64,000 nucleotides of DNA, taken from the sequence record PV467749.1, one strand, 5' to 3'. The stretch is from a phage. Position numbers and translations under genes: made by a program. Below, in pieces: positions 1-64,000 of the stretch; position 1 is the stretch's first letter; each line of letters starts with the position of its first letter. A model generated the notes under the pieces. The model did no database searches, was not told the DNA's origin, and saw nothing but the letters and a program-made list of their open reading frames with translations.

Positions 1-176
1 ATGTAATTATACACATTGGCTTCTTGATAGTTAGTTCCCAGTGTAGCTTGAACATAGATTTCATTTAACTTAATAATTTTATCAGTATCTGGTAGTTTTG
101 ATGTGTTAATGGCAAATAACTTCAAAAACAGTCCATTTAAGATTGTTAGGTATTCTTCGTCGGTAATGATTCGCAT
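1..176 (-). CDS. family-1 small protein (LGTNYQ motif), C-terminus cut by window edge
   Basis: Minus frame reads MRIITDEEYLTILNG..ATLGTNYQEANVYNY and runs off the left edge; same layout as the copies to its right. Confidence 0.6.
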   Translation of the reverse strand, partial: MRIITDEEYLTILNGLFLKLFAINTSKLPDTDKIIKLNEIYVQATLGTNYQEANVYNY

Positions 177-382
177 TTGCATTGGATAAACCTTTTTAGT
201 TCTTTGATGTAATCATTAATATTGCATTCTTGATAGTTAGTCCCTAGGGTAGCTTGAACATAGATTTCACTCATTAGAATATTTTTTTCTTCATCAGGTA
301 AATCTGTGGTCTTTGCTATATACAATTTTAGAATTAAACTACTTAATAGTTCGTGGTATTCACTTGGTGAAAGGATTTTCAT
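146..382 (-). CDS. family-1 small protein (LGTNYQ motif)
   Basis: Motif ATLGTNYQE. Start set at MKIL, giving an ATGA overlap with the upstream stop (track start 388 adds MQ). Confidence 0.75.
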   Translation of the reverse strand: MKILSPSEYHELLSSLILKLYIAKTTDLPDEEKNILMSEIYVQATLGTNYQECNINDYIKELKRFIQCKCESLPTKNT

Positions 383-594
383 TTGCATGTTCTCAGTACA
401 GATTCTTTAAGTTCATCGATGTAGTCCTCAACGAATTGCTCTTGGAAGTTAGTTCCAACATATAAAAGAACTCTTAAATCTGCTCTAAGTAACTCTTTTT
501 CATCATCATCTATATCAGACAATGTTATGTTTAAGAATTTACTTGTATTAAAGATTAACAATTCTGTTTGTTCACTGTGGCTTAAAATTTTCAT
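379..594 (-). CDS. family-1 small protein (LGTNYQ motif)
   Basis: Tandem paralog, motif YVGTNFQEQ, N-terminus MKILSHSEQ. Confidence 0.75.
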   Translation of the reverse strand: MKILSHSEQTELLIFNTSKFLNITLSDIDDDEKELLRADLRVLLYVGTNFQEQFVEDYIDELKESVLRTCK

Positions 595-802
595 AATCTC
601 TTTTTGCTTTCCTCGCCAAAAGGTACATATACGATTCTTCGTATTGTGCTTGGTAGTTTGTGTTTAAGAGTCGAAACAACTTCTGTTCTGCTAGAACGAG
701 TTGCTTATCTTCATAACAACGATAGCGTATCAACTTTTTGTATTCGATGTTGATTACATCCATTACTATAAGCCCATGTTCATCATCTGTCAAGTGTTTC
801 AT
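572..802 (-). CDS. family-1 small protein (LGTNYQ motif)
   Basis: Tandem paralog, motif LLNTNYQAQ; ATGA overlap with upstream gene. Confidence 0.75.
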   Translation of the reverse strand: MKHLTDDEHGLIVMDVINIEYKKLIRYRCYEDKQLVLAEQKLFRLLNTNYQAQYEESYMYLLARKAKRDYENFKPQ

Positions 803-1041
803 GCATTTTTTCTTTTTCTTATATGTTTAGTTAAAAGGTATATTAGTTTTCTGATGTATTCTTCTTGGTAGTTTGTTCCTAGGAGTGCAAGAAGCTTTGC
901 TTCAACTAGAGCTAATTGACGTTCTTCAAATGTGTGTTCCAGTATGTACTTTGGGTTTGATTTTTTAGAAATTGCACTATTAGTTTTCATTACAATCTTA
1001 TGATATTCATTAACTGTTAGGATTTTTAAATTCTTGAGCAT
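799..1041 (-). CDS. family-1 small protein (LGTNYQ motif)
   Basis: Tandem paralog, motif LLGTNYQEE. Confidence 0.75.
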   Translation of the reverse strand: MLKNLKILTVNEYHKIVMKTNSAISKKSNPKYILEHTFEERQLALVEAKLLALLGTNYQEEYIRKLIYLLTKHIRKRKNA

Positions 1042-1255
1042 GTACCTTTTCCTTTATAGAGAATTTAAGATATCGAAGCATACTTTCAATGTAATACTCT
1101 TGTCTGTCAGTTCCAAGAAAGTACATGAGTTGAATGTATAAAACTTCTGCACTCCTTTCGGCAGGTGACTTGTTTGTGTCGTTTGGAAGTTGATTTGTAA
1201 GTTTTCTGGATTTAATTAATCGTTCTTTTAACTCATCGTCTGTTAAGTATTTCAT
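1010..1255 (-). CDS. family-1 small protein (LGTDRQ variant)
   Basis: Motif FLGTDRQEY. Start set at MKYLTDDE, 1 nt after the upstream stop (track start 1267 adds MQNE). Close to copies at 1257 and 1477. Confidence 0.75.
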   Translation of the reverse strand: MKYLTDDELKERLIKSRKLTNQLPNDTNKSPAERSAEVLYIQLMYFLGTDRQEYYIESMLRYLKFSIKEKVHAQEFKNPNS

Positions 1256-1256
1256 T

Positions 1257-1475
1257 TCATTTTGCATTTACTTTTTCCATAATACTCATTACAAGATGTT
1301 CAATCATATTTTGAACCATAAATTCTTGTTTATCAGTTCCAAGAACGTATTGTAGCTTCTGAAACAATACATTCGCAGACATTTCATATATTGATTGATT
1401 TGGAACGAACTTAAGAGTAATGTTATTGGCTTTTAACATCTTCTCTTGAAATTCTTCATTCGTTAAGTATATCAT
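1257..1475 (-). CDS. family-1 small protein (LGTDKQ variant)
   Basis: Motif VLGTDKQEF; start set at MIYLTNEE (track 1487 adds MQSE). Confidence 0.75.
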   Translation of the reverse strand: MIYLTNEEFQEKMLKANNITLKFVPNQSIYEMSANVLFQKLQYVLGTDKQEFMVQNMIEHLVMSIMEKVNAK

Positions 1476-1476
1476 T

Positions 1477-1701
1477 TCACTTTGCATTTATTTTTTCCAT
1501 AATAGTGATTTTAAGATATTTAATTATACGTTCAACGTGATACTCTTGCCTATCAGTTCCAAGAAGGTATGGTAATGACTGGAATAAAACTTCTGCACTC
1601 CTTTCCGCTGGGGTTTGGTTTGGGTTGTGTGGAAGATATTTTGTAAGTTTTTTGGATTTATCTAGTCTTTCTGTTAACTCATCATGTGTTAAGTATATCA
1701 T
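1477..1701 (-). CDS. family-1 small protein (LGTDRQ variant)
   Basis: Motif LLGTDRQEY; start set at MIYLTHDE, giving an ATGA overlap (track 1713 adds MQNE). Confidence 0.75.
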   Translation of the reverse strand: MIYLTHDELTERLDKSKKLTKYLPHNPNQTPAERSAEVLFQSLPYLLGTDRQEYHVERIIKYLKITIMEKINAK

Positions 1702-1940
1702 TTCATTTTGCATTTAATGTTCCTTACGTAAATTGTCTGGATTAAAAGTGAAATCCATTTTTCTACATATTGGTTTTGATACTGTGTACCTAAGAGGAAC
1801 TGCATTTTAAACTCTGCTTCAAGTTCATATCTCTTTTCTATAGAAAAGCTTAAATGACCATATTCCTTATCGTATCGTCTCATAGCTTCCCCAATTCTAT
1901 CAAATCTTTCTGCTAATCTGATGTTATTCACAATATTCAT
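1698..1940 (-). CDS. family-1 small protein (LGTQYQ variant)
   Basis: Motif LLGTQYQNQ; ATGA overlap upstream. Confidence 0.7.
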   Translation of the reverse strand: MNIVNNIRLAERFDRIGEAMRRYDKEYGHLSFSIEKRYELEAEFKMQFLLGTQYQNQYVEKWISLLIQTIYVRNIKCKMK

Positions 1941-2194
1941 CGATCAGTACACCTCAGTGGTTGGGTCATTTGATAAAAGTACAGCTTACCTTTGATTTCC
2001 AATAGTAACTCCGCGATTAAGCGATTTACTTCTGGCTCTTGATAGTTTGTTCCTAAGAATACACCCATCTTTAACTCACGCATCATAATCATTTTCTTAC
2101 TGTGTTGAATTTCTGGGTTGTGATAGATTGTATTACGTTTGTGTGTAATTTTTGTCATACGCTCGGTATATTCATCTTTACTTAAATTGATCAT
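1937..2194 (-). CDS. family-1 small protein (LGTNYQ motif)
   Basis: Motif FLGTNYQEP; ATGA overlaps on both sides. Confidence 0.75.
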   Translation of the reverse strand: MINLSKDEYTERMTKITHKRNTIYHNPEIQHSKKMIMMRELKMGVFLGTNYQEPEVNRLIAELLLEIKGKLYFYQMTQPLRCTDR

Positions 2195-2427
2195 TTTTTA
2201 TTCTCCAAAGCATCGCATTTATTTTCGATACAATTCATTAGTTCTCTAAGATAGTTTTTTACCTTACCTGCCTGATAGTTCGTCCCCAGGAAGTTGCATA
2301 ACTCTGCTTCTATTATTTTGATTCTTCTGTTATCAGGTTTCAATTTTTTGTTATTGAAGATTTGAATCCTTATATCCCTTGATGCATTTAAACGTTTTTG
2401 ATAATCATGGTAAGATAAATGAATCAT
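2191..2427 (-). CDS. family-1 small protein (LGTNYQ motif)
   Basis: Motif FLGTNYQAG; ATGA overlaps. Confidence 0.75.
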   Translation of the reverse strand: MIHLSYHDYQKRLNASRDIRIQIFNNKKLKPDNRRIKIIEAELCNFLGTNYQAGKVKNYLRELMNCIENKCDALENKK

Positions 2428-2636
2428 TTACTTTGTATCTCTCTCTTGAGGGCATCAATTAACAACAGTACAGCATTCTCTTGATAGTTTGTTCCTAAGA
2501 CTGAAAGCATCTTAATCTCATTTACTACAATCAACTTCTTTGAGCGTTCAATAATGTTACTATTATAAACGGCGTTACGTGCTGGATAAGTTTTTGCAAG
2601 ACGATCATAATATTCATCTTTACTTAAATTAATCAT
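2424..2636 (-). CDS. family-1 small protein (LGTNYQ motif)
   Basis: Motif VLGTNYQEN; start set at MINLSKDEY, giving an ATGA overlap (track 2642 adds MQ). Confidence 0.75.
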   Translation of the reverse strand: MINLSKDEYYDRLAKTYPARNAVYNSNIIERSKKLIVVNEIKMLSVLGTNYQENAVLLLIDALKREIQSK

Positions 2637-2851
2637 TTGCATTTACTTTTGACCTCTTTCAGTAGAGCATCAACCCATATGTCTACATACATTTGTTGAT
2701 AGTTTGTGTCTAATAGTGCACCTACATATAGTTCAGCTACCATTGCGTGCTTTAGGTCAACAGGGATGCTCTTATCAGATTGAATCTTTACCCTTCTGCT
2801 TCCACATGTTTTCAGAAGCTTAACATATTCGTAACCTATTAATTTTCTCAT
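2633..2851 (-). CDS. family-1 small protein (LDTNYQ variant)
   Basis: Motif LLDTNYQQM; ATGA overlap. Confidence 0.75.
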   Translation of the reverse strand: MRKLIGYEYVKLLKTCGSRRVKIQSDKSIPVDLKHAMVAELYVGALLDTNYQQMYVDIWVDALLKEVKSKCK

Positions 2852-3063
2852 TCTCTGGATAACACCTTGTTGCGTAAGGCACTTAACAATACGTCAGTGT
2901 AGATGTTTTGATAGTTTGTTCCTACGAAAGCACCCAACTTCATTTCAGCTATTATAACACATTTGTCCTCTTGTGCAATAGACTTGTCTAAAGAAATACT
3001 AACAACTTTCCTTCTTATAGCTTGTAACCTCCAATGATACTGAAACTCATTTAGTGTTATCAT
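2848..3063 (-). CDS. family-1 small protein (LGTNYQ motif)
   Basis: Motif FVGTNYQNI. Confidence 0.75.
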   Translation of the reverse strand: MITLNEFQYHWRLQAIRRKVVSISLDKSIAQEDKCVIIAEMKLGAFVGTNYQNIYTDVLLSALRNKVLSRE

Positions 3064-3298
3064 TATCTCGTCTCCATATCTCGGTTCTAATGTGTTGACA
3101 TTGTGCTTCGATGAACATATCTATTGATTTGGCAATTGCGTTTTTATCTGTGCCAGTCATCAGTACAAGCATCTCGGCCTCACAGTGAAGTAAACGCATG
3201 ATATCATAGGGTAATATTCCAGATACCGTGTCATAGTGTTTCTGTGCCAGTGTCTGTAATAGTTTACAATACATTTTGTGATTTAGTCTGTGTCGCAT
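3047..3298 (-). CDS. family-1 small protein, divergent member
   Basis: Same size and position in the array, but the motif is degraded to MTGTDKNAI. Confidence 0.6.
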   Translation of the reverse strand: MRHRLNHKMYCKLLQTLAQKHYDTVSGILPYDIMRLLHCEAEMLVLMTGTDKNAIAKSIDMFIEAQCQHIRTEIWRRDNDNTK

Positions 3299-3537
3299 TG
3301 TTTATTCCATTCTTTTTTTTTGGCCTTGATGGTTTTATATTGGATTTGGTTTCTTAATGCTGATAAGTATCGTTGAATGAACAGATCTTGATAGTTTGTT
3401 CCAATGAATTTCATAAGATAAAGTTCACCGTTGATAACATCCACTTCAGGTGCACCATATAAGGCATTGTTTTTTCTAAGGGCATGGATTAAAGAGAATA
3501 GGGCAGTTTGATACTCAACTCCTGATAAAATCTTCAT
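3283..3537 (-). CDS. family-1 small protein (LGTNYQ motif)
   Basis: Motif FIGTNYQDL; start set at MKILSGVEY (track 3558 adds MIICSQN). Confidence 0.7.
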   Translation of the reverse strand: MKILSGVEYQTALFSLIHALRKNNALYGAPEVDVINGELYLMKFIGTNYQDLFIQRYLSALRNQIQYKTIKAKKKEWNKQCDTD

Positions 3538-3772
3538 GTTTTGTGAGCAAATAATCATCTAGTTTATCCTGTATAACATTCGTTAATTGTTCGATATATT
3601 CTGTGCAAAACTTATCTTGATATTGAGTCCCCATAAAGTACAGCAACCATAGCTCATTAACTTTAGCTCGCATTTGGTTCCATGTAAGGCTGGGGTCATC
3701 GTAGACTATCCTTGCTATAGGGGTTAGTTTACGGACTATAGTTTCATATTCATCTAGTGTTAAGTGTTTCAT
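3515..3772 (-). CDS. family-1 small protein (GTQYQ variant)
   Basis: Motif FMGTQYQDK; ATGA overlap upstream. Confidence 0.75.
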   Translation of the reverse strand: MKHLTLDEYETIVRKLTPIARIVYDDPSLTWNQMRAKVNELWLLYFMGTQYQDKFCTEYIEQLTNVIQDKLDDYLLTKHEDFIRS

Positions 3773-3987
3773 TTACATTTGTCCCTTATTAGATCAGTGA
3801 GGGCAACTATGTGTGCAACAACATACTCTTCCTGAAAGTTCGTCCCCAGTACAGCCATCATGCGTATATCGGTGGTGTTTATCCTGTGTTCCCTTACACA
3901 TAAACCTTCTGTGTGAGGAAGTGTAAAATATTTGTTTATTGCAGCAACGATAATTTTATTCTTCTCGGAGTTACTTAAATGTTTCAT
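3769..3987 (-). CDS. family-1 small protein (LGTNFQ variant)
   Basis: Motif VLGTNFQEE; ATGA overlaps. Confidence 0.75.
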   Translation of the reverse strand: MKHLSNSEKNKIIVAAINKYFTLPHTEGLCVREHRINTTDIRMMAVLGTNFQEEYVVAHIVALTDLIRDKCK

Positions 3988-4196
3988 AGTTTACTCCTGA
4001 TATAATTCTGAAGTGCAATTAAGTATTCCCCTACATAATACACCTGAAAGTCTGTATCAAGGAATGCACCCATAAGTAAATCTTTTTCTAATACCCTTGA
4101 TAAGTTAAGGTCTGCATTTGAAAGGTATATAAGTAAGATTTCACCCTGTGCGGAATTGAAACGTTTCTTATATTCTTCTGGTGTTAAAAAAATCAT
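3984..4196 (-). CDS. family-1 small protein (LDTDFQ variant)
   Basis: Motif FLDTDFQVY; close duplicate of 4193..4408 (shared DLNL..VLE..LLGAFL and YIRSKL). Confidence 0.75.
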   Translation of the reverse strand: MIFLTPEEYKKRFNSAQGEILLIYLSNADLNLSRVLEKDLLMGAFLDTDFQVYYVGEYLIALQNYIRSKL

Positions 4197-4408
4197 AATT
4201 TGCTCCTGATATATTTCTCAAGAGATGACAAATACTTTTCCTCATAATACTTCTGATAGTCTGTTCCTAAGAATGCACCCAAAAGTATTTCATTTTCCAA
4301 TACCTCGGCTAAGTTTAAATCAGAAGTCTCTTCGTATATTATGAGGATTTCAAGTTGTCTGGCAGCGATGCGTTCAGTATATTGATATGAGTTTTCTATA
4401 ATAATCAT
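4193..4408 (-). CDS. family-1 small protein (LGTDYQ variant)
   Basis: Motif FLGTDYQKY; ATGA overlaps. Confidence 0.75.
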   Translation of the reverse strand: MIIIENSYQYTERIAARQLEILIIYEETSDLNLAEVLENEILLGAFLGTDYQKYYEEKYLSSLEKYIRSKL

Positions 4409-4614
4409 AATTTACTCTTTATATCTTGAATTAAAAATCGAATCCATTCTTCAACATAATCTTCCTGATGGTTTGTGTTCAGTACAGCCAACATGCGGAT
4501 CTCTGCTCTTGCAACTTCAATTTCAGTTTTAGGAAGGTCTTTGCTGATATCCACCATTAAGTCCATGTATTTCAAGATAAGACCGTATGATTGGGTTCGT
4601 GTTATAGTTTTCAT
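4405..4614 (-). CDS. family-1 small protein (LNTNHQ variant)
   Basis: Motif VLNTNHQED; ATGA overlaps. Confidence 0.75.
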   Translation of the reverse strand: MKTITRTQSYGLILKYMDLMVDISKDLPKTEIEVARAEIRMLAVLNTNHQEDYVEEWIRFLIQDIKSKL

Positions 4615-4811
4615 TGTTTCCTCGTGGACAATATTTTATTTTTCAATGTATCCATATATTGAATCACCCATCTTTCCTGATAGTTAGTTCCCAAAGTAAT
4701 CAAAAGGTATAACTCCATTCGTTCTACGTGTGTGTCTGTATTATAAATCTTTGTGAAGTTTTTACGTAACAGTTCTTGATAATCTTCTTTATTTAAAATA
4801 CGCATTTTCAT
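4611..4811 (-). CDS. family-1 small protein (LGTNYQ motif)
   Basis: Motif TLGTNYQER; ATGA overlap. Confidence 0.75.
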   Translation of the reverse strand: MKMRILNKEDYQELLRKNFTKIYNTDTHVERMELYLLITLGTNYQERWVIQYMDTLKNKILSTRKQ

Positions 4812-5005
4812 AGTCTACCTTTTATGTCCCTTCGTAATTCTTGTAAGTATAGTTCGATATACTTTTCTTGATAGTTAGTTCCTATGAAAAGTTTCATAAC
4901 CAATTCACGCTTATATGCAATACCACGGATATGTGACATATGTAGGATATATGCCATGTTGGATATGAGTGTGTGGTTGTGCTCTTCTTGAGTTAAAATA
5001 CGCAT
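4808..5005 (-). CDS. family-1 small protein (LGTNYQ motif), first gene of the array
   Basis: Motif FIGTNYQEK; SD GGAG upstream; a promoter lies just upstream. Confidence 0.75.
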   Translation of the reverse strand: MRILTQEEHNHTLISNMAYILHMSHIRGIAYKRELVMKLFIGTNYQEKYIELYLQELRRDIKGRL

Positions 5006-5035
5006 AGGGACTCCATTAAAAATAATATCAATCCA

Positions 5036-5063
5036 ATAATATACGATTCATATAAAAAGTCAA
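5036..5063 (-). promoter_or_regulatory. sigma70-type promoter for the family-1 array
   Basis: TTGACT-N16-TATTAT on the minus strand, about 30 nt upstream of the ATG at 5005. Confidence 0.55.
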
Positions 5064-5254
5064 TAACATTTTATAAGTAATACCCCTTTATCGAAGTCGC
5101 TAAGGTTACCCGCCCTTTAGCCCCCTACGCATTTTGCCATAGTCCAATCCCTTTTTATTCATAAAAGTCAAGGGATTACCTATGCATTTTTTTAACGCTG
5201 AAGTTTAAAAATGCCTTGACTTTTTTATGATTCAGTACTAAATCCTTTTACGCA

Positions 5255-8330: not shown

Positions 8331-8383
8331 AATTTTGTTTCCTTTTATTGGTGGGGAGAACTATTCTCCCCTTGATGTAAACT

Positions 8384-8411
8384 ATTATACAGTACTGATA
8401 TACTTTGTCAA
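8384..8411 (-). promoter_or_regulatory. promoter + 5' stem-loop cassette (PeSL-like)
   Basis: TTGACA-N16-TATAAT (TG-extended) + GGGGAGAATAGTTCTCCCC hairpin. Confidence 0.75.
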
Positions 8412-8417
8412 ATACTT

Positions 8418-53359: not shown

Positions 53360-53368
53360 TACATGTAA

Positions 53369-55733: not shown

Positions 55734-55744
55734 ATAAGTTATCC

Positions 55745-56299
55745 TTATTTCAAAGAATCATAGTAAGCAGTGTCAAAGATTGGAGTCATAATAACATAGT
55801 CAATACGGTCAATGTAAGTTGAACTCCACATTTCTGGTTTGTCATAAAATTGACGCTCGCGTTCATTCATACGAGTCAGTACTTCTTCCAATTTACTACG
55901 TGAAGCCATCAATGTATTACGCGATCCATAAGTGAAGTACTCAGTCCATTGATATTCATATTCAGTACTGATAGATTGAATAGTACCATCTTTGAAATGA
56001 GCTAAGGCATATCCTTTCTCTACAAAGTTATCAGGTGGAAGAACACTATCTGGATTAGTTTTCAATGCTTTGGTTAACTTTTCTTTAATTTCAGTTAACG
56101 TGCATACTGAACGAATGTTCTTCAGGTTTGATACTTGAAAATCACTGTACTTTCCAAAGAAAAATACACGCCAATCTTTAGGTTCATTATCAGATACGGT
56201 AATATTCGGATGATGGGCGAGTAAACGAAGAAGGCCAGCTTTGTGACCGTTAATGTAGATCTCATGGATGTGGTTAGCAGTTTTCTTAAAAGTAATCAT
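55745..56299 (-). CDS. hypothetical protein
   Basis: Start moved to MITFKKTANH (SD GAGGAA); 184 aa. Confidence 0.8.
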   Translation of the reverse strand: MITFKKTANHIHEIYINGHKAGLLRLLAHHPNITVSDNEPKDWRVFFFGKYSDFQVSNLKNIRSVCTLTEIKEKLTKALKTNPDSVLPPDNFVEKGYALAHFKDGTIQSISTEYEYQWTEYFTYGSRNTLMASRSKLEEVLTRMNERERQFYDKPEMWSSTYIDRIDYVIMTPIFDTAYYDSLK

Positions 56300-56355
56300 G
56301 ACAATTCCTCGATTGTGGGATGAGAAGTTCATCCCCTTGATAAACATTATACAGT

Positions 56356-56383
56356 ACTGAATGAGTTTGTCAACTCAAAATAA
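56356..56383 (-). promoter_or_regulatory. promoter + 5' stem-loop cassette (PeSL-like)
   Basis: TTGACA-N16-TATAAT + GGGATGAacttcTCATCCC hairpin; overlaps the 3' end of 56375..56755. Confidence 0.7.
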
Positions 56384-56755
56384 ATTCATTTCATGTGCGT
56401 ATTGTGGTTCAAGATGCGATAAGTTTTTGAAGCTTTCTTTCAACTCAGCATCATCTACATACACCGTGCCTGGTACATTCCCCATAGTGAAACCTACCCA
56501 CACAGTCATGTCACCAGTCCCTAAGCGTGGCATTGATAGCGAACCATCAGGTGAAACATCAAACGCTACACTGAAGTCATCAGTAACAACGTCAGAACCA
56601 TTTTCGAGAATAATACATCCACTATCTTTAAGCTTCTGAATGTGGATAGCAGCCTCTACAGCACGTTTGAAGTTATAGTAAGACTCTTTATCCTCAAACA
56701 TTGATTGTTTAATCAGACGCTTGTTTAGCTCGGTTACTTTGTGCATTTGACGCAT
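56375..56755 (-). CDS. hypothetical protein
   Basis: 126-aa ORF. Confidence 0.75.
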   Translation of the reverse strand: MRQMHKVTELNKRLIKQSMFEDKESYYNFKRAVEAAIHIQKLKDSGCIILENGSDVVTDDFSVAFDVSPDGSLSMPRLGTGDMTVWVGFTMGNVPGTVYVDDAELKESFKNLSHLEPQYAHEMNLF

Positions 56756-57012
56756 TACTTATCCATCTCCCACAGTTGTAGAATTTCATAAGAGCCTGGT
56801 GGTGCTGGATTCCTGATCTCAGGGAATTGAGTACTTTTAGGATTTCCACCAGCATTAAATTCGTCAAGTAATGATTCCAGTTCGCGACGATCCTGAACAA
56901 CATAAACACAATCACCTGAACCTTCTTCGAGAATCATTTCACTTCCTGCACAATCCCATACTGTTGAGATACATAGAATCTCTTTTGTATTTTTATTACG
57001 CAATGCAAACAT
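56755..57012 (-). CDS. hypothetical protein
   Basis: 85-aa ORF; 1-nt overlap with the downstream start. Confidence 0.7.
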   Translation of the reverse strand: MFALRNKNTKEILCISTVWDCAGSEMILEEGSGDCVYVVQDRRELESLLDEFNAGGNPKSTQFPEIRNPAPPGSYEILQLWEMDK

Positions 57013-57020
57013 AGCACCCC

Positions 57021-57365
57021 CTATCGATTTGGCATTTTATCTCGTAATCTAATGAGATAATCAACCACAGACCATGTTGAAATGAAAGTGATATAAGTAC
57101 CGAAGAATCCTACCAGAATAAAGGCAACAAGTGTACTCCCATTTGGATCTTCAGCTTTAATACCGATGATACCATCAAATACAGTGAAAAATGTAGACAT
57201 ACACGTTAAACAGATGTACATCACCAATAAGAATTCATGTTTCAATGATGGATATAAACGGTCAAAGAGTTTATAAAATTTAAAGTACAGTAGGAGTATA
57301 CCAACAAAGACATAGAAAGTAAACAGTGTTGTTATGATATATGATATTAAATTTAAATTATACAT
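57021..57365 (-). CDS. small multi-pass membrane protein, TM family member
   Basis: Start set at MYNLNLISY (2 nt after the upstream stop); tail LIRLRDKMPNR. Confidence 0.7.
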   Translation of the reverse strand: MYNLNLISYIITTLFTFYVFVGILLLYFKFYKLFDRLYPSLKHEFLLVMYICLTCMSTFFTVFDGIIGIKAEDPNGSTLVAFILVGFFGTYITFISTWSVVDYLIRLRDKMPNR

Positions 57366-57366
57366 C

Positions 57367-57714
57367 TCAACGCTCCGGTAGATTATCACGTAATGTTTTG
57401 ATTCGATTATACAATTTCATTGCTACATTTCCAAATAAACCAAAACCCATTACTAAAATGTATGCGATGATCATAGTAATAATTACAATAGTACCTAGAC
57501 TGTAATGTACTGCACTGATACCCATTATTGTTTCTACAATGATGTGAGCAACAGAAATAATCAAAAGTACTACTACAATTGGATGATTTGGATACATTCG
57601 GTTAAACAATGTTTTGTACTTAAAGAAGTACAGTACTCCACCAAATAAGAAGTACACAATGTAGATTGATGCAACTGCATAAGCAAACGCATTAGTGTAA
57701 AAAATCATTATCAA
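57367..57714 (-). CDS. small multi-pass membrane protein, TM family member
   Basis: 115 aa; tail IKTLRDNLPER. Confidence 0.75.
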   Translation of the reverse strand: MIMIFYTNAFAYAVASIYIVYFLFGGVLYFFKYKTLFNRMYPNHPIVVVLLIISVAHIIVETIMGISAVHYSLGTIVIITMIIAYILVMGFGLFGNVAMKLYNRIKTLRDNLPER

Positions 57715-57717
57715 TCC

Positions 57718-58056
57718 TTACTTTTCAGGGATTTTATTACGCCACTCATCGATGCGATGAAGCAGTTTAAAGAGCAAAAATATCGGAACAGTAGCTATCA
57801 TAGTAGCAATTGTTAGTAATGTCAACACCGATACGAGATTTAATTCGTCAGTACTATATCCACATACCAGTGCTTCAATTATCCCCCACGTACATACACT
57901 GAACATCAAAAATGAAATTGGTGCATCGTAGTATATGCGTTGATACAAGGTCGTGTATCGGAAGAATGCAATAATGTAACAAAACATGTAATACACCCAA
58001 ATTAACGATACTACATAAAATGATACCTTATTAATTAATTCAAAATGATGTTCCAT
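57718..58056 (-). CDS. small multi-pass membrane protein, TM family member
   Basis: 112 aa; tail IDEWRNKIPEK (compare ELRNKIPEE at 52616). Confidence 0.75.
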   Translation of the reverse strand: MEHHFELINKVSFYVVSLIWVYYMFCYIIAFFRYTTLYQRIYYDAPISFLMFSVCTWGIIEALVCGYSTDELNLVSVLTLLTIATMIATVPIFLLFKLLHRIDEWRNKIPEK

Positions 58057-58065
58057 TTTTACCCC

Positions 58066-58341
58066 CTACATATATTCTAAGAATAATGTATTAGCTTCGT
58101 CTATGTTCTTAAGATAATACATGTAATACAGATTTGGTTGTCCGTCTTTTGAACTCAAATCAAAGTACTTTAAACTATGCACCTTCATGACAAAAACAAA
58201 TAATGACTTAAAACCAATCTCACCGTACTTAATAAACAGTTCATCTAAATGAATGTAACTCTTAGTTTCAGATAATTCCTTCACATCATCTTCAATTTCT
58301 TGTAAGCGAAGTTTACCGATTAAGTTTTCAAATGAACGCAT
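58066..58341 (-). CDS. hypothetical protein
   Basis: Start set at MRSFENL (SD AAGGAA); the track start 58368 overlaps the upstream gene. Confidence 0.65.
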   Translation of the reverse strand: MRSFENLIGKLRLQEIEDDVKELSETKSYIHLDELFIKYGEIGFKSLFVFVMKVHSLKYFDLSSKDGQPNLYYMYYLKNIDEANTLFLEYM

Positions 58342-58352
58342 GATGTTGTTCC

Positions 58353-58766
58353 TTATGCTGGTACACAATTTTTTATAATGAATACACGTTTCATGAATGA
58401 ACTTTCATATACGTACTTCAGTTTACCATTTTCACGCATACGATGAAACACATCTTTACCGCTAGTACTCCATGTTGAACCAGTCTCTGCATCAACATTG
58501 TTCATTACACCAGATGTTACATTCACCCCGTACTTGAAGCTAAAGGTACTACCTTCTTCTACTAGAGGGATTGGTGTACTACGTTCATGTTCCAGTACAA
58601 GTTTACTGCCGATGATGTTGTACGAAGTTAGCTTGCATTTTAAAACACCCATCTCTTGTGCAGTTGGGTAATTCTTCTCAAATAAATCAGATACTTCATT
58701 TGCATAACAAACTGAACTAATCATAAGAAGTAATGAACTGATAGAACGGAAAATAACTTTTAACAT
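58353..58766 (-). CDS. secreted protein (signal peptide, two-Cys family)
   Basis: MLKVIFRSISSLLLMISSVCYA|NEV; Cys at VLKC and 3 residues from the C-terminus (IKNCVPA). Confidence 0.75.
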   Translation of the reverse strand: MLKVIFRSISSLLLMISSVCYANEVSDLFEKNYPTAQEMGVLKCKLTSYNIIGSKLVLEHERSTPIPLVEEGSTFSFKYGVNVTSGVMNNVDAETGSTWSTSGKDVFHRMRENGKLKYVYESSFMKRVFIIKNCVPA

Positions 58767-58792
58767 GTTTGCCTCCAGTAGTTGATGAAATG

Positions 58793-58832
58793 ATTATAGC
58801 AAAAAGGGCCGACCGAAGTCAACCCTTTTCTT
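58793..58832 (-). promoter_or_regulatory. terminator-promoter fusion cassette
   Basis: GGGTTGAC-TTCG-GTCGGCCC hairpin + T-run; TTGACT-N18-TATAAT. Confidence 0.7.
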
Positions 58833-59207
58833 TTATATTTTACATGTCATGTCTGGTTTTGGCTTTTCATTCTTTGGCTTTTCAAATGGATTTGGCTTAG
58901 GGGACTTTTTATCTTTGTCATCTTTAGCTTTCTTTTTGTTTTCTTTTTTATCCGATTTGTCAGCTTTGTCTTTCTTATCTTTTGAATCTTTGTCAGCTTT
59001 AGATTGTGGTTCCTCACATACAGCAGTTTTTGGCTCCGGCATATCACATGAGTTATCCACTGGTTTAATGAACTCTTTACAGTTGTAGAAGTATAAACTT
59101 TCATTGGTAGTAAGATTGTGGAATCTAAAGGTATTTTCACCATTAGTATATACTTTCTTAGTACTCTCAATATCATTACACATTGCAACTGTGTCACCGG
59201 AATTCAT
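58833..59207 (-). CDS. hypothetical protein with Lys/Asp-rich low-complexity tail
   Basis: 124 aa; C-terminal KADKDSKDKKDKADKSDKKENKKKAKDDKDKK; preferred over alternative frame 58847..59197. Confidence 0.6.
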   Translation of the reverse strand: MNSGDTVAMCNDIESTKKVYTNGENTFRFHNLTTNESLYFYNCKEFIKPVDNSCDMPEPKTAVCEEPQSKADKDSKDKKDKADKSDKKENKKKAKDDKDKKSPKPNPFEKPKNEKPKPDMTCKI

Positions 59208-59445
59208 GCTCGATACCTATTACATCCGACTTACGTTCAGATAGTATTCCAGACGTATATCGATCTTTGTTATCAAATGCATTGAACCCTATAGTTTTAT
59301 TATTGTCATGTACCAATCCTCTAGTGTAAGACTTGGTATAGAACTCACCGTTTCTAAACTCCTGTCTAGCAATGGAGCACTGGTATTCAGTACTATAAAC
59401 TATATCAGTAAACAATACAAGTGAAAATAAAACATATTTAAACAT
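59194..59445 (-). CDS. small secreted protein (signal peptide)
   Basis: MFKYVLFSLVLFTDIVYS|TEYQC..; 83 aa. Confidence 0.65.
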   Translation of the reverse strand: MFKYVLFSLVLFTDIVYSTEYQCSIARQEFRNGEFYTKSYTRGLVHDNNKTIGFNAFDNKDRYTSGILSERKSDVIGIEHEFR

Positions 59446-59480
59446 TGCATTACCTCTTATAAAACCCTCTACAATATTTA

Positions 59481-59507
59481 CAAAAAAAGGTTGACCGAAG
59501 TCAACCT
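59481..59507 (-). terminator. rho-independent terminator (UUCG tetraloop)
   Basis: GGTTGAC-TTCG-GTCAACC + T7 on the minus strand, after the stop of 59517..61028. Confidence 0.8.
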
Positions 59508-59516
59508 TTTAAATGT

Positions 59517-61028
59517 TTATTTTTTATCCTTTCCAACACCACGGTCGTACTCTTTGAATGAGTTATCAAGTGTAGTTAGTGCATACTCATATGCTTCTGG
59601 TGATTCAATGTCAACATCATCTGCACCATTTACTAAATCAGCCCAAGCCTTTTGAAGTTTACGAGCATTGTTACCAACATTATCTTTAATCCAACTAATA
59701 TTTTTGTTGATACTTTTACTATCAGCACCTGCTTTTTTACCAATCTCGGATATCCACATCATTAACTTTTGAAGTTCATGAATTGATTTATCAGTCATTT
59801 CAAGATGTTCTTCTTCCATACCGTCAGAATCAGATGAACCAACGTCAATTCCATGTTTAGCTAATAGTTTACCAAGTTCAAAGAATGCAGCTTCAGCAGG
59901 GAAGTCATAACCTTTGTCTTTGTAGTTATTCCATGCACTATCAAACTCGTCAACAAAACGGTTAGCATAATCTGGATTTTTAACTAATGCTTTATATACT
60001 GCCATTGCATGTTCAAAACCTTCTTTATCTGACCCAAACTCTTCCATCTCAGGACGATGAATATATCCATCCATATCAACGGTATCAGGTAGATCTTCTT
60101 GTTCAGGTTCTACATCTTTCTGTTCAACTGCACCTTCTTCATCTGCACGCTTTAGATAACCATCTGGTGTTACCTTCTCACCATGTTCTGCTTCATACTT
60201 TTTCATAGTGTTGAATGCAGCATCCATAGCTGTTACGAAGCGACTTTTCTCACCTTGTACATAAGATTTAAGTGCACTGTTAACTGCATCTGATACGAGC
60301 TTAACCTTATCGTCTTTACCTTCTAAACGGTTTTCAAGTTTAGCCAGTACATTCTTGATTTGCTGGGCATTAGCACGGTCTGCTTTACCAATACTATCAA
60401 AAGTTTTAAGAATACCATCAAGACTTGCTTCACCCTGTTCAGGTTCTTTCGAATCTTCTTTGTGTGTACCTTCAAGTGCACGCATGATAGTACTGAATAC
60501 TTCAGTGGGTTCAGTACTCTTATTACCTTTCATTGCATCAAGTACAGCTTGTGCTTTACCTTTGAGTTCTTCTTTAGGAACTGCCTGTAGTGCTTTGACA
60601 ATACCCTGAATCAACTGTGGTTTGTTAGCAAAGATCTTACCTAAGTTATCAGATAACTCTTTAACAGGGTTAGCTGCTTTAGGAGCTTCTGGTTTTGGTT
60701 CTTCTTTAGGAACTGCTTGTTCTTTCTCAGCACGTTCCATATCAGCAAGGCGTTGTTTCTGTGTTGCGTTAAGAAGACCTAATGAGTTAACATAACGTAG
60801 CTTTTCTAGCTCAGTCATGTTCTCAGTACTCTTAACTTCACCTGCTTCTGCGTTTGCCTTACCAGCTAAACCTGTCCCTTGATTACGTGAACCACGTGAC
60901 CCCTGTCCTGCTTGGTAGCTATTTTGACGACGATTGCGTTCACTCCATTTATCAGAGTGACCTGCCATGTTCCCGCCATTTTTATCAGTAAATTGACCTG
61001 GCATTTGATTTCTCTCCATAGATTTCAT
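59517..61028 (-). CDS. large acidic hypothetical protein; N-terminal region paralogous to 61861..62259
   Basis: 503 aa. Shared DKWS/DKWN, Y(V/L)(N/D)SLGLL, PKEE(L/H).(G/A)K. Alternative start at MPGQF (61004) has the better SD, GGAGAG. Confidence 0.8.
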   Translation of the reverse strand: MKSMERNQMPGQFTDKNGGNMAGHSDKWSERNRRQNSYQAGQGSRGSRNQGTGLAGKANAEAGEVKSTENMTELEKLRYVNSLGLLNATQKQRLADMERAEKEQAVPKEEPKPEAPKAANPVKELSDNLGKIFANKPQLIQGIVKALQAVPKEELKGKAQAVLDAMKGNKSTEPTEVFSTIMRALEGTHKEDSKEPEQGEASLDGILKTFDSIGKADRANAQQIKNVLAKLENRLEGKDDKVKLVSDAVNSALKSYVQGEKSRFVTAMDAAFNTMKKYEAEHGEKVTPDGYLKRADEEGAVEQKDVEPEQEDLPDTVDMDGYIHRPEMEEFGSDKEGFEHAMAVYKALVKNPDYANRFVDEFDSAWNNYKDKGYDFPAEAAFFELGKLLAKHGIDVGSSDSDGMEEEHLEMTDKSIHELQKLMMWISEIGKKAGADSKSINKNISWIKDNVGNNARKLQKAWADLVNGADDVDIESPEAYEYALTTLDNSFKEYDRGVGKDKK

Positions 61029-61059
61029 ATTGTTTATTCTCTATGACTATATTTATAGT

Positions 61060-61088
61060 ATAAAGAAAAGGTTGACCGAAGTCAACCC
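61060..61088 (-). terminator. rho-independent terminator (UUCG tetraloop) overlapping a -35 TTGACT
   Basis: GGTTGAC-TTCG-GTCAACC + TTTTCTTT; TATACT/TACTAT -10 candidates follow. Confidence 0.75.
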
Positions 61089-61109
61089 TATTTTCACTGT
61101 ACTATACCA

Positions 61110-61406
61110 TTAGTAGTTACAGTCAGCTTTCGCTGTGAATGTTTTACTTTCACCTCGTTGTGTGGTGATTCGTCCGAGTAAAGTAGTTTTGTCAATAGTC
61201 ATTGTAGTTAGTACTGGAACATTACCTTCAAAGTCAATAGCTTTGAAATTGTAGGTGGTTTCATTCTCCACTACACTTGGACCAAAGAGTTCATATGTGT
61301 TGATTTCAAGTGTGTCACCATCTGAACGCAACAGTGTGCAGTCCAGATTAGGAGTAGCCAGTACTGGGAAAGCCAAACACATCATCATTACAATAATTAA
61401 TTTCAT
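61110..61406 (-). CDS. small secreted protein (signal peptide, two-Cys family)
   Basis: Start moved to MKLIIVMMMCLAFPVLA|TPNLDC; C-terminal KADCNY. Confidence 0.75.
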   Translation of the reverse strand: MKLIIVMMMCLAFPVLATPNLDCTLLRSDGDTLEINTYELFGPSVVENETTYNFKAIDFEGNVPVLTTMTIDKTTLLGRITTQRGESKTFTAKADCNY

Positions 61407-61407
61407 T

Positions 61408-61665
61408 TCACTTCTCCTGTTTTTTCTTAGGATCAACCAATGACCAAATGAAGAATCCGAGAATTACAAGTACCCACAGAATCATGATAAAGAAAGCAAA
61501 CAGTACAATAGTATTTGTCAAAAAGAAATACAATAGAATGTTCGACCCAATACTACATACAATCAATGCAGCTTCATGTTTAACAACACGAATGGCTGTA
61601 ATGAGTGCGGGAAGAAATCCGACAAATAACAGTACTAATGCATATAGTGATAATGTTTCAGCCAT
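61408..61665 (-). CDS. small membrane protein
   Basis: 85 aa, three hydrophobic helices, basic tail. Confidence 0.7.
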   Translation of the reverse strand: MAETLSLYALVLLFVGFLPALITAIRVVKHEAALIVCSIGSNILLYFFLTNTIVLFAFFIMILWVLVILGFFIWSLVDPKKKQEK

Positions 61666-61673
61666 GATATCCC

Positions 61674-61787
61674 TTATTTGGTTTGTTCAACACTAGGTGT
61701 ATTGATATAGGTGTCAATTGAATAACATACTGTACCCACTACAACAGCAGCGATTAGGGCAGTGATGATGAATTTAGTACCTTGCAT
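61674..61787 (-). CDS. hypothetical 37-aa single-TM peptide (below cutoff)
   Basis: My translation: MQGTKFIITALIAAVVVGTVCYSIDTYINTPSVEQTK; SD GAGGT 8 nt upstream. Confidence 0.45.
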   Translation of the reverse strand: MQGTKFIITALIAAVVVGTVCYSIDTYINTPSVEQTK

Positions 61788-61834
61788 AATTTAATACCTC
61801 ACGTTGTTTGTATTTTGTATCACTTGATGAAAAT

Positions 61835-61868
61835 ATTATACGACAAAGGGCTGACTGAAGTCAACCCC
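61835..61868 (-). promoter_or_regulatory. terminator-promoter fusion cassette
   Basis: GGGGTTGAC-TTCA-GTCAGCCC hairpin; TTGACT-N18-TATAAT. The TGA stop of 61861..62259 lies inside GGGGTTGACT. Confidence 0.7.
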
Positions 61869-62259
61869 TTTTAATTATTTTTTTAAACTTATGTTTTTCG
61901 CCTTCAATAGAGTTCACGATGTCATCATGAATCTTGCGAAGGTTATGAGTTTTCTTTAGTGCTTCATGTAGTGCACGGAATGCTGCGTGTACTGTTGCCT
62001 TGAAGTGCTCTTTAGGAGTCACTTTAAGTTTCTCAATGATATCACGTACATAAATTGGATGATCTTCAAATACACGATTCAATTCATGGCCTAGTGATTC
62101 TAGACTGAAAGCTTTTTCACGTGAAGGACGATCATGTGCAAGACTTTGGTCAGGCTTTAGTAGACCTAGTGAATCAAGATACTTATGCTTATGTGCATTA
62201 TCAATTCCAGAAATATCCACATCATGCGATGGATCTTTCTTATTCCATTTATCAACCAT
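61861..62259 (-). CDS. hypothetical protein, short paralog of the N-terminal region of 59517..61028
   Basis: 132 aa; see shared motifs above. Confidence 0.75.
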   Translation of the reverse strand: MVDKWNKKDPSHDVDISGIDNAHKHKYLDSLGLLKPDQSLAHDRPSREKAFSLESLGHELNRVFEDHPIYVRDIIEKLKVTPKEHFKATVHAAFRALHEALKKTHNLRKIHDDIVNSIEGEKHKFKKIIKRG

Positions 62260-62370
62260 TTCATACTCCTTAAAGAGATAAATTACTTTAATATTTATAC
62301 TTCATGTGCTGTTTATTTCAACAGACACTTAAGATTATATCACATATGAAATGGTTGTTCCAACGTCAAA

Positions 62371-62814
62371 TCAGTACTGTTTAAGTTCTGAACTGAAGAT
62401 AAAGGAATCCATATCTTCTAGTGTTAACTTCAAGTTCGGTGTGTACTTTAATATCACACATTCAGGTTTCTTAATGGCAGCTTGATAGGCAGCAATTGCC
62501 AACTGTTGAAGCTGCTCTGGTGTGTAGTTCATGCGTTCTGCATTGAATACGATGTTCTTAATATCACCACCTGGCAGCTTCTCAAACTCACGCATAACAG
62601 CAGCCATCACATCATCAGATGTATTCTTATAAGCCCAATGAGGTAGTTGCATAACGTCATAAATCTCGCCATTGTCGTTCATAAGAGAGATCCATTTTTT
62701 ACCGTCCGATGAACTAAACAGACGACCTTTAATAGCAATGTTCTCTACCAAATTAACAAAGGCAAATATGTCTTGCTCATTTAGCTCAATGCTATTAACG
62801 TTAATCCAACCCAT
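62371..62814 (-). CDS. hypothetical protein
   Basis: 147-aa ORF, SD GGAGAT. Confidence 0.8.
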   Translation of the reverse strand: MGWINVNSIELNEQDIFAFVNLVENIAIKGRLFSSSDGKKWISLMNDNGEIYDVMQLPHWAYKNTSDDVMAAVMREFEKLPGGDIKNIVFNAERMNYTPEQLQQLAIAAYQAAIKKPECVILKYTPNLKLTLEDMDSFIFSSELKQY

Positions 62815-62827
62815 ACTTCATCTCCAG

Positions 62828-63400
62828 TTATAAATCACGAACGACATTCATTAAACACAATTTGGGCTTTATCGCATTCAAAACCCATATGCATTCTTTG
62901 TAAGTTGCTATTATAGCATCTAAATGCTCAGTTACAATGCTTTCTTGAAAATATTCTTCTTCATTGAGCTTTGCTAAATTAGTTACATCACATGTAGGTA
63001 CTATAGGTCTGGATTGTACACCCATTCCATTATTGATATTGGTAAAATGTAAAAAATTGTACTTCACCACACCTTTATCTACATTTATGATACATGACAA
63101 ATGTTCCAACTCAGTTAGTTCTGTATTACAAGTGACATTAATGAATCCAGCATTATAGGCTCTATAATCATCTACTGATATCTCAAAATCATTACGTTCA
63201 AATATAAGTGAAATGAGTTTGTCTTGTGGTTTAACCTTCTGAAATTTTACCGAATTTACGTATGATACGTTAATCTTAGATGAAATTATCTTTTTACTAA
63301 GTGCAGTTAATTCTTCTTTAGCCTTAAAAGTTAAAGTTATAGGTCTAAATCTAGAACTTTTGTTCTTCTTTGATACTTTGAACTTACCTTTTCTATTCAT
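62828..63400 (-). CDS. hypothetical 190-aa protein, distant paralog of 27818..28477 and 48973..49623
   Basis: Basic N-terminus; KLNEEEYFQESIV motif. Confidence 0.7.
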   Translation of the reverse strand: MNRKGKFKVSKKNKSSRFRPITLTFKAKEELTALSKKIISSKINVSYVNSVKFQKVKPQDKLISLIFERNDFEISVDDYRAYNAGFINVTCNTELTELEHLSCIINVDKGVVKYNFLHFTNINNGMGVQSRPIVPTCDVTNLAKLNEEEYFQESIVTEHLDAIIATYKECIWVLNAIKPKLCLMNVVRDL

Positions 63401-63454
63401 TAATTAAACCCCACATAAAGTAAAAGGGATGGCATATTACCAACCCTATATCTT

Positions 63455-63691
63455 TTATTTTTTAATAGATTCATAAAGCAGAAACAACCAAATAAACATT
63501 GATGAACAAACTACTACTGGGATTAATGTAAATTCAGTAAAGAATAAAAGTATTCCATAAGTTAGTATGCAACATAAGTTTACGTACATAATTGCTTCTG
63601 CATTTTTATTTTTCATTTTATATGCAATGAATGTTGGTGACCACATTACCAAAAATGCAAACAACGCACATATGATGATTATAGTTTCCAT
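63455..63691 (-). CDS. small membrane protein
   Basis: 78 aa, 2-3 hydrophobic helices; SD GGAGGTG. Confidence 0.75.
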   Translation of the reverse strand: METIIIICALFAFLVMWSPTFIAYKMKNKNAEAIMYVNLCCILTYGILLFFTEFTLIPVVVCSSMFIWLFLLYESIKK

Positions 63692-63761
63692 ATTACACCT
63701 CCGTAAAATAATGTTCTGTACTGCTATTATTTACAGAGAATATCTGAAAAATTGATCTAGA

Positions 63762-63986
63762 TCAATTTTTAGTCACTTTACAATTTGAATCTTTTTTGTA
63801 CTGAACAATCACATTGTTCTTAAGGAAGATGATGGTCCCATAGGAACCTTGGGCTGCAACTTCAACAATATGGTTCTTATATGTTTCAGTATACCCTTCC
63901 ATCTCGTTGATACACACTACATGATACTTTGGTTTAGCACATACAACAGTACTCAAGAATAGCAGTACTAGTACTAGATATTTCAT
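63762..63986 (-). CDS. small secreted protein (signal peptide, two-Cys family)
   Basis: MKYLVLVLLFLSTVVCA|KPKYHVVC..; C-terminal DSNCKVTKN. Confidence 0.75.
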   Translation of the reverse strand: MKYLVLVLLFLSTVVCAKPKYHVVCINEMEGYTETYKNHIVEVAAQGSYGTIIFLKNNVIVQYKKDSNCKVTKN

Positions 63987-64000
63987 TTTATTACCTTATA

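Follow-up and report, generated by a model that had tools for sequence, protein, structure and literature searches.

An over-represented AGTACT palindrome in 121Q-like jumbo phages and its placement in early promoters

Genome context and abundance of AGTACT

We analyzed a 64,000-bp stretch of phage DNA (sequence record PV467749.1, hereafter the window) for the hexameric palindrome AGTACT, which it carries in exactly 274 copies. By Megablast, the window belongs to the Asteriusvirus group of 121Q/PBECO4-like Escherichia coli jumbo phages, with genomes of ~350–380 kb; members of this group, 121Q, PBECO4, fEgEco12, WPEC3/5, and others, match it as a mosaic at 92–99% identity. The termini of fEgEco12 have been determined experimentally, and its direct terminal repeats measure 20,993 bp (PMC13070987). 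By alignment to fEgEco12, positions 1–5,100 of the window represent DNA just inside the left repeat, positions 5,101–25,573 (minus strand) one collapsed copy of the terminal repeat (~20.5 kb), the junction 25,573/25,574 the physical genome end, and positions 25,574–64,000 the right unique end. The terminal repeat is made up of small early genes, each with a sigma70-type promoter, and contains 137 AGTACT sites. The right unique end comprises a further early-gene block (25,574–30,540, minus strand, 41 sites), an array of RCC1-repeat, or "propeller", genes (30,570–50,825, plus strand, 59 sites, 2.9/kb), and a block of ordinary genes at the baseline density of the genome (50,851–64,000, minus strand, 37 sites, 2.8/kb, nearly all intragenic). 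The minus-strand genes of the window span 146–30,476 and 50,862–63,986, and no tRNA gene is present in it. The word is unevenly distributed, with no copy in 1–5233, 6.7/kb in 5101–25573, 8.3/kb in 25574–30540, and ~2.9/kb elsewhere, a feature overlooked in a preliminary description of the window that had been made from the sequence alone.

That description had called AGTACT massively over-represented, and the exact counts confirm this. Dinucleotide-preserving shuffles of the window yield a mean of 22.4 copies (standard deviation 4.9, maximum 34). The excess also stands under the third-order Markov model that had been proposed as a check, which predicts 103 copies, or 29.7 when the sub-words of AGTACT are masked; the unmasked figure is too high, as the word itself raises the frequencies of AGTA, GTAC, and TACT. 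The sites are wholly intragenic in 182 cases and non-coding in 89, while 3 lie across gene ends, and the masked model predicts 25.9 coding and 2.9 non-coding copies. By z-score, AGTACT ranks first of the 4096 hexamers in the window, the next-ranked words being its own overlaps, and CAGTACTG is found 61 times for ~1 expected. The local observations of the preliminary description are equally sound: the promoter contexts AAAAGTACTTGCA and CAGTACTGTATAAT are real, and the three intragenic sites placed near 33474–33510 start at 33472, 33487, and 33501, within 35 nt of one RCC1 gene (33472–33506, plus strand).

Repeated cassettes, which might have produced such an excess, were rejected as its cause. 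When the sites were clustered by their flanks (±20 nt), 230 distinct contexts were obtained at a threshold of at least 70% identity and 203 at a threshold of at least 60%, so that more than 200 contexts are unrelated and the promoter and terminator cassettes contribute only a small share. A dispersed repeat element similar to a repetitive extragenic palindrome or a miniature inverted-repeat transposable element was rejected as well, the copies having no extended common flanks and only the promoter and terminator cassettes being repeated.

Within genes, the word is selected at the DNA level, as the preliminary description had suspected. Shuffling synonymous codons within the genes of the window leaves 56.3 ± 6.4 copies of the 183 observed, and the enrichment holds in each of the three frames (81/37/65 observed, 27/12/18 after the shuffle). 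Indeed, 81 of the 157 Ser-Thr dipeptides (52%) are spelled AGT-ACT, for 23.6 (15%) expected. The long open reading frames of fEgEco12 outside the repeat behave in the same way, with 521 copies against 141 ± 11 in the synonymous shuffle. Even the proteome is skewed: the dipeptide ST reaches 1.39 times its expectation and TS 1.00 times, VL 1.20 times and LV 0.91 times, and [KQE]Y[FLSYCW] has 204 occurrences, its reversed order 142. AGTACT is uniform along gene length. A codon usage or codon-pair effect was rejected, since all three frames and non-coding DNA are enriched.

The excess is a property of a defined group of phages. In the 353.7-kb non-redundant genome of fEgEco12, AGTACT is present 977 times for 111 (order-1 model) to 138 expected, with a baseline of 2–3/kb across the genes for structure and replication that rises to 6.6/kb in the terminal repeat. 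In 40-kb samples, it is the top hexamer of RaK2 (Alcyoneusvirus; Klebsiella), GAP32 (Mimasvirus; Cronobacter), and fHe-Yen9-04 (Eneladusvirus; Yersinia), with 92, 96, and 87 copies for 8.7, 11.3, and 10.9 expected, respectively. This 8–10-fold excess, together with that of Asteriusvirus, extends over four genera infecting four host genera. No enrichment was detected in PA5oct, a more distant relative from the sister lineage (1 copy for 11.4 expected), in T4 (7 for 7.7), or in the coliphages W70 and muut (8 and 2 for 6.9). A 50-kb sample of E. coli K-12 has only 3 copies (0.06/kb), and the density in the phages is 50–70 times that of host DNA. All 8 copies in W70 are confined to a 1.5-kb patch with an early promoter cassette also found in the jumbo phages; the word therefore travels with the DNA of this lineage and is a signature by which horizontally transferred DNA can be exposed. 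The idea that every lineage has a word of its own was abandoned, as the CTGCAG of PA5oct is merely 4-fold enriched.

Individual sites turn over, while their density is constant. Codon alignments between genera (24–30 orthologue pairs with 58–73% amino-acid identity, fourfold sites being ~50% identical) show that only 16–39% of the AGTACT sites share their position, at a density of 2.0–2.6/kb in every genome; where the local peptide is unchanged, both genomes use AGTACT in 58 of 87 cases. The window and fEgEco12 diverge by 4%; 223 sites are common to them, 18 are specific to the window, and 14 to fEgEco12. Changed sites amount to 6.7%, compared with 12.6 ± 4.6% for 382 control hexamers, among which AGTACT has rank 29; by this measure, an existing site is conserved about twice as well as a control word. 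In the genome core, the sites are spaced more evenly than random ones, with a coefficient of variation of the gaps of 0.885 (0.998 ± 0.038 for random), a largest gap of 1,976 bp (2,284–3,936 bp for random), and a variance of the counts per 2-kb bin of 3.32 for a mean of 4.81 (ratio 0.69, p = 0.002). Close pairs show a bump at 20–24 bp and no excess genome-wide (75 for 74.4 expected). Even spacing, turnover at constant density, and conservation together amount to continuing selection for density or coverage, with single sites free to move.

Promoters, terminators, and the genome end

The symmetry of the word extends beyond its six bases. Its half-site is flanked by TTC in 11.5% of cases for a background of 2.3%, a symmetric preference that is alike in coding and non-coding DNA; C is favored at position −1 (0.44 coding, 0.52 non-coding) and G is the rarest base there. 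The fuller form of the word is T-T-C-AGTACT-G-A-A (TTCAGTACTGAA), and perfect 12-bp palindromes are found in the non-coding region at the genome end.

Nearly every small gene of the terminal repeat has its own near-consensus sigma70-type promoter, and AGTACT occupies fixed positions in these promoters. The window has 41 promoter-like sites: in 18 of them, the word starts 27 bp upstream of the −10 hexamer, giving AGTAC-TTGACA or AGTAC-TTGCAA, where its last T is the first T of the −35 element, and in 14 it starts at −7/−8, as AGTACTGTATAAT or AGTACTGGCATAAT. The early region of RaK2 (6.85 sites/kb) shows the same two positions, −27/−28 in 11 and −7/−8 in 22 of its 31 promoter-like sites; in many RaK2 promoters, both positions are filled, at a distance of exactly 20 bp, although the sequence between them is different. 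Judged from sequence, AGTACT is a position-specific promoter element conserved across genera, whose copies are arranged like an operator pair on one face of the helix. A dual-site early promoter, aaaAGTACTtgcaattagttttcAGTACTgtataat on the transcribed strand, is found at 20804–20829 (minus strand), with one copy fused to the −35 element and the other abutting the −10 element, 20 bp apart; similar pairs are seen at 7187/7209, 13296/13316, 14845/14867, and 18234/18256. As in an operator, a fixed dyad-symmetric site overlaps the promoter elements and is kept in relatives, both in the window and in RaK2, although the sites are not confined to regulatory regions, 182 of the 274 being intragenic.

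A single-site promoter, ttgacaaagtatatcAGTACTgtataat, is located at 8391–8396 (minus strand), in a cassette also carried by Vequintavirinae and Justusliebigvirus phages through horizontal transfer. This cassette (8310–8440, minus strand) combines an early promoter with a downstream hairpin (ttgaca...AGTACTgtataat...ggggagaatagttctcccc) and is found at 83–88% identity in unrelated ~140-kb coliphages (Vequintavirinae W70, Justusliebigvirus muut, and others), which points to horizontal exchange of early-gene cassettes.

AGTACT also forms terminator stems, as had been noticed in the preliminary description. In the RCC1 array, 9 of the 10 spacers of at least 30 nt contain the stem GCCAGTACT-NN-AGTACTGGC followed by a T-run, in which the self-complementary word serves as the stem, for instance at 36520/36528, 43803/43811, and 48949/48957 (plus strand). 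The spacers of the array are near-identical cassettes in which the terminator hairpin is followed by ttgattaaatatagtataatgaataaaggagggaattatg (34123–34190, 35319–35388, 36511–36581, 41300–41369, 43793–43863, and others); each paralogue is therefore equipped with a copy of a common promoter and ribosome-binding site.

The density of AGTACT peaks in the terminal repeat and less than 0.7 kb from the physical end. A non-coding stretch of 1.4 kb at the genome end holds the densest cluster, 12 sites in 816 bp (24856–25671), mostly of the form (T)TCAGTACTGA(A), which overlaps the end at 25573/25574; the preliminary description had counted the same 12 sites in 24856–25675.

Other elements accompany this region. 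An 8-bp iteron-like tandem array of CCGTCTAG/CCATCCAG units is located ~800 bp from the genome end, and 10-bp TGATTAC-type repeats flank the end on both sides; these elements (24671–24790, 25486–25519, and 25716–25749) may be signals for packaging or replication. Chi, the E. coli sequence GCTGGTGG, is strongly enriched, with 36 copies in fEgEco12 for ~2.4 expected, one third of them in the terminal repeat. In the window, Chi sites are present at 6464, 6687, 8266, 10168, 13413, 14363, 14621, 18879, 18941, 33229, 49493, and 56846, and an inverted pair, CCACCAGC-acaa-GCTGGTGG, at 24977–24996, ~580 bp from the physical end; this pair may protect linear ends from RecBCD. Among the early proteins of the terminal repeat, one of 84 residues (10543–10797, minus strand) has a ParE-like toxin domain (PF24732, E = 6e-11) and is 67% identical to a RaK2 early protein.

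Blocks without the word and the AGTACA variant

Two blocks close to the left repeat are free of AGTACT. The first, at 1–5233 of the window (minus strand), contains 22 tightly packed paralogous genes of ~65–91 codons and no AGTACT, for ~1.5–1.9 copies expected by composition and ~15 at the usual density of the genome. These genes (146–5005, minus strand) are arranged head-to-tail and overlap, without intergenic promoters. Between Asteriusvirus genomes, the block varies more than other parts of the genome; its recent acquisition from other coliphages was rejected, because it is restricted to this genus, at 82–94% identity. The second block is situated outside the window, at 29,015–37,646 of fEgEco12, just inside the left repeat. 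It also has no AGTACT, and its sense strand carries 46 copies of the one-base variant AGTACA for 0 of TGTACT (~2.5 expected); these copies occur in every frame, and their contexts are unrelated. The block is conserved in 121Q, where it is likewise AGTACT-free and AGTACA-rich (17 versus 0 in 2.5 kb, at 162.5–165 kb of the record). In the first block, the bias is opposite and weaker, with 9 TGTACT versus 1–2 AGTACA on the sense strand. The strand-specific variant suggests that the word is read directionally in the region of the second block.

Candidate readers of AGTACT

The preliminary description had suggested that AGTACT might be the recognition site of a phage protein. Recognition by a protein is the best-supported reading, since the dyad symmetry extends to TTCAGTACTGAA and the positions in early promoters are fixed across genera; the protein itself, its phage origin, and the effect of its binding are what we infer from these features. 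We tentatively propose, at somewhat less than even confidence, that AGTACT is the core of the recognition word of a dimeric, clade-specific, predicted DNA-binding factor. Such a factor would read the word as double-stranded DNA and would be two-fold symmetric, presumably a dimer; it would be specific to the RaK2/121Q/GAP32/Eneladusvirus clade of enterobacterial jumbo phages and most probably phage-encoded. Selection keeps about one site per 350–400 bp, evenly tiled over the ~350-kb chromosome, and given the 50–70-fold contrast in density with the host, the factor would mark or coat phage DNA selectively. The word is concentrated 2–3-fold in the terminal repeat and at the genome end, where it is part of dozens of early sigma70-type promoters, and occupancy of its two operator-like copies on the same helix face would switch early transcription, most simply by shutting it off. 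The dyad symmetry, the promoter positions, the maxima at the ends, the even tiling, the contrast with the host, and the sharp phylogenetic boundary are best explained in this way.

The closest functional models for the proposed factor would be phi29 p6 and SPO1 TF1, abundant phage proteins that bind the whole genome with a preference for its ends or for early promoters and act as repressors of early transcription. What p6 recognizes is bendability, and TF1 recognizes DNA with hydroxymethyluracil; a discrete hexamer is read by neither of them, and neither is known to have left a 10-fold word excess in its genome.

Several observations weigh against a dimeric DNA-binding factor. A pure operator role is insufficient, because two thirds of the sites lie inside genes, a long way from promoters, and the marking or coating role is one that we infer. 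No helix-turn-helix or TetR-like candidate reader was found among the phage proteins examined, and no Pfam domain was detected in g185, g307, and g390, which are annotated as "transcriptional regulators". The best-conserved early protein (17511–17780) is of a beta-rich, uninformative type. The two AGTACT-free blocks by the left repeat are long resident in the genome, and the strand-specific AGTACA of the second block (46 versus 0) is not predicted by a simple symmetric-dimer model. Lastly, a methyltransferase, nickase, primase, or topoisomerase acting at the word would give much the same sequence statistics. The early protein mentioned above, phrog_14550 (89 residues, minus strand), is 74% identical to its RaK2 counterpart, compared with 34–56% for its neighbors, and has only 11 clade-restricted homologues in a search of 5.8 billion proteins.

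The DNA-binding factor could be part of a virus-encoded chromosome-marking system, in which the ~1000 tiled copies of AGTACT would tell the 350-kb phage chromosome from that of the host, a possibility that we regard as rather doubtful. The factor would then load from the terminal repeats and double as a master switch of dozens of early promoters, and the one-base strand-specific variant AGTACA of the conserved block would be read directionally.

The word might instead be the substrate of a phage enzyme rather than the site of a passive binding protein, which we consider unlikely. Candidates are a site-specific nickase or endonuclease creating starts for recombination or replication, a primase, and a topoisomerase II, for which A|GTAC|T would fit the 4-bp stagger; the word might also be a terminase-related site. 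Among the proteins of the clade are a T4-type primase, topoisomerase II, UvsX/UvsY, and numerous HNH endonucleases. A palindromic word could be used on both strands and would suit recombination-dependent replication; the even, coverage-like spacing of ~400 bp and the density peak at the genome end agree with such a role, and the half-palindromic, strand-specific AGTACA is what a nicking or polar enzyme, such as a nickase or a polar motor, would read. However, T4 has the same replication and topoisomerase machinery and no enrichment, the candidate enzymes are not tied to the word, the fixed positions in promoters are left unexplained, and double-strand cuts at ~1000 sites would be lethal unless tightly controlled.

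A second enzymatic possibility involves DNA modification and has to be seen against the restriction-site avoidance of these genomes. In fEgEco12 (354 kb), 17 GC-rich 6-bp palindromes, each expected 19–50 times, are at zero, among them GGATCC, CTGCAG, CCATGG, GGTACC, GTCGAC, and TGGCCA; CAGCTG has 1 copy and GACGTC 4 copies, and 24 palindromes are at zero in the window. This avoidance is extreme and unusually complete, and the ~1000 AGTACT copies stand out against it. AGTACT is also the target of ScaI-type enzymes; phages normally avoid such targets, which would be depleted, whereas AGTACT is ~10-fold enriched. The preliminary description had proposed that base-modified DNA could make avoidance irrelevant. 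Such global hypermodification is not the explanation, because the 17 palindromes are completely purged, and the virion DNA of fEgEco12 is cut by ten restriction enzymes as predicted in silico (PMC13070987). A modification of AGTACT alone would be compatible with both observations.

In terms of sequence, AGTACT most closely resembles the highly iterated palindrome HIP1 (GCGATCGC) of cyanobacteria. Both are short palindromes far above expectation in all coding frames and in non-coding DNA, and HIP1 is likewise kept by selection rather than by repair bias, non-randomly spaced, and missing in some lineages (PMC5861425). AGTACT shares with HIP-type words the genome-wide excess, the presence in all frames and in non-coding DNA, the conservation, and the non-random spacing, which for HIP1 is described as having a long-range periodicity. 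It differs from HIP1 by its length (6 bp instead of 8 bp), its sequence, its occurrence in a virus instead of a cellular chromosome, its excess (~10-fold compared with 15–300-fold), its fixed promoter positions, and its concentration at genome ends, and cognate methyltransferases are known for HIP1. HIP1 proper is absent, CGATCG having 0 copies in fEgEco12. We describe AGTACT as an iterated palindrome of the HIP type that occurs in a virus and is integrated into promoters.

By analogy, AGTACT could be the target of a DNA modification enzyme, the modified word being functional or the ~1000 ScaI-type sites being made harmless, which we judge slightly less probable than the action of another phage enzyme. 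HIP1 is modified by two methyltransferases and maintained by selection (PMC5861425; bioRxiv 2026.06.24.733823), and tolerating ~1000 unprotected AGTACT sites would be risky in a genome purged of 17 palindromes. Methyltransferases of the Dam and C5 types are encoded in the clade, as is a Mom-like protein in RaK2. No AGTACT specificity is evident for the Dam-type and C5 enzymes found in the clade, however; the Dam family is typically specific for GATC. The RaK2 C5 enzyme is reported to give CpG methylation (PMC3622015), and AGTACT contains no CpG. Moreover, protection would explain why the sites are tolerated, but neither their 10-fold excess nor their positions in promoters.

The host nucleoid-occlusion factor SlmA is an improbable reader, retained because of two observations: multicopy plasmids with its binding site (SBS) cause an SlmA-dependent lethal division block (PMC3573117), and filamentation, with cells full of DNA, is seen on infection by Sharanji, a close relative (PMC11895373). 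According to this idea, thousands of weak sites on phage DNA dispersed through the cell would activate or titrate SlmA and thereby block division. The SBS, GTGAGTACTCAC, contains AGTACT as its central six bases; G1, T2, A4, and G5 are strongly required, with a purine at position 3 (PMC3020112). The two sites also share dyad symmetry and dispersion in DNA, and an SBS between −35 and −10 represses the promoter (PMC3573117). All AGTACT-rich phages infect Enterobacterales, and E. coli has slmA. Nonetheless, GTRAGYRCTYAC has 0 matches in the window and in the 354-kb fEgEco12, and the 12-bp palindrome GT[R]AG[Y][R]CT[Y]AC was likewise not found in either. The flanks differ at two of three positions, with T and C in place of the required G1 and purine 3 even where non-coding sites are free of constraint; flanks of the GTR type are scarce (31 half-sites for ~70 expected), with G the rarest base at −1, and mutating positions 1 and 2 "significantly impaired" SlmA binding (PMC3020112). 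Other coliphages have no AGTACT excess, and the E. coli chromosome has 24–52 SBSs compared with ~1000 AGTACT per phage genome. No SlmA/TetR homologue was found in the phage (best match E = 0.11).

Two other host sites were rejected. The 18-bp spacing required of LexA boxes is missing from the AGTACT spacing histogram of the window. For the TrpR operator, the sole literature match to TTCAGTACTGAA is the output of a motif finder and not a validated site, and ACTAGT is not enriched.

The two weakest explanations can be dealt with briefly, both being very improbable. A non-adaptive drive, in which biased mutation or very-short-patch-like mismatch repair turns near-matches into AGTACT, would account for the genome-wide occurrence in all frames and for the positional turnover, but it is largely refuted, since none of the nine pairs of one-mismatch neighbor words is depleted as a consumed precursor would be (0.95–1.72 times expected), the sites are conserved above controls with balanced gains and losses (18 versus 14) and more even than random spacing, the promoter positions are fixed across genera, and long-resident blocks of the same genome have no AGTACT. 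An RNA motif, AGUACU/AGUACA, acting in transcripts, with the palindromy of the DNA being incidental, would suit the sense-strand-only AGTACA blocks of fEgEco12 and 121Q and the terminator stems, but not the lack of sense bias of the 5-mer core genome-wide (509 AGTAC[ACG] versus 491 [TCG]GTACT), the symmetric flank preferences, the sites upstream of transcription starts, at −35 and in the spacer, or the lack of excess of hairpin-capable close pairs; no Rfam family was detected in the window.

Among other words, Chi and the uptake signal and DNA uptake sequences (USS/DUS) resemble AGTACT as density-type signals with many copies, turnover, intragenic sites, and a role in telling the organism's own DNA apart; USS/DUS are also used in terminator stems. 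Unlike AGTACT, which is palindromic and has no genome-wide sense bias, they are asymmetric and orientation-biased and have known readers, RecBCD and the uptake apparatus.

The literature searched on this phage group contains no mention of the AGTACT word, its extended forms, or ScaI; "SCAI" in the RaK2 paper is a culture medium, unrelated to the word. The excess of AGTACT in this clade is apparently unreported. Restriction of the ScaI type would be a specific vulnerability of these phages, which are therapeutic candidates. Hyper-abundant short palindromes kept by selection have come mainly from cyanobacteria, where the function of HIP1 has been debated for three decades. The phage clade offers a much more tractable setting, with a 350-kb genome, ~1000 sites, a clear on/off boundary between the four genera and PA5oct, placement at set positions of early promoters, a density peak at the genome ends, and site-free blocks as internal negative controls. 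Should the chromosome-marking proposal prove true, no functional iterated-word system would have been described in a virus before, and AGTACT would provide a tractable model of the HIP1 problem.

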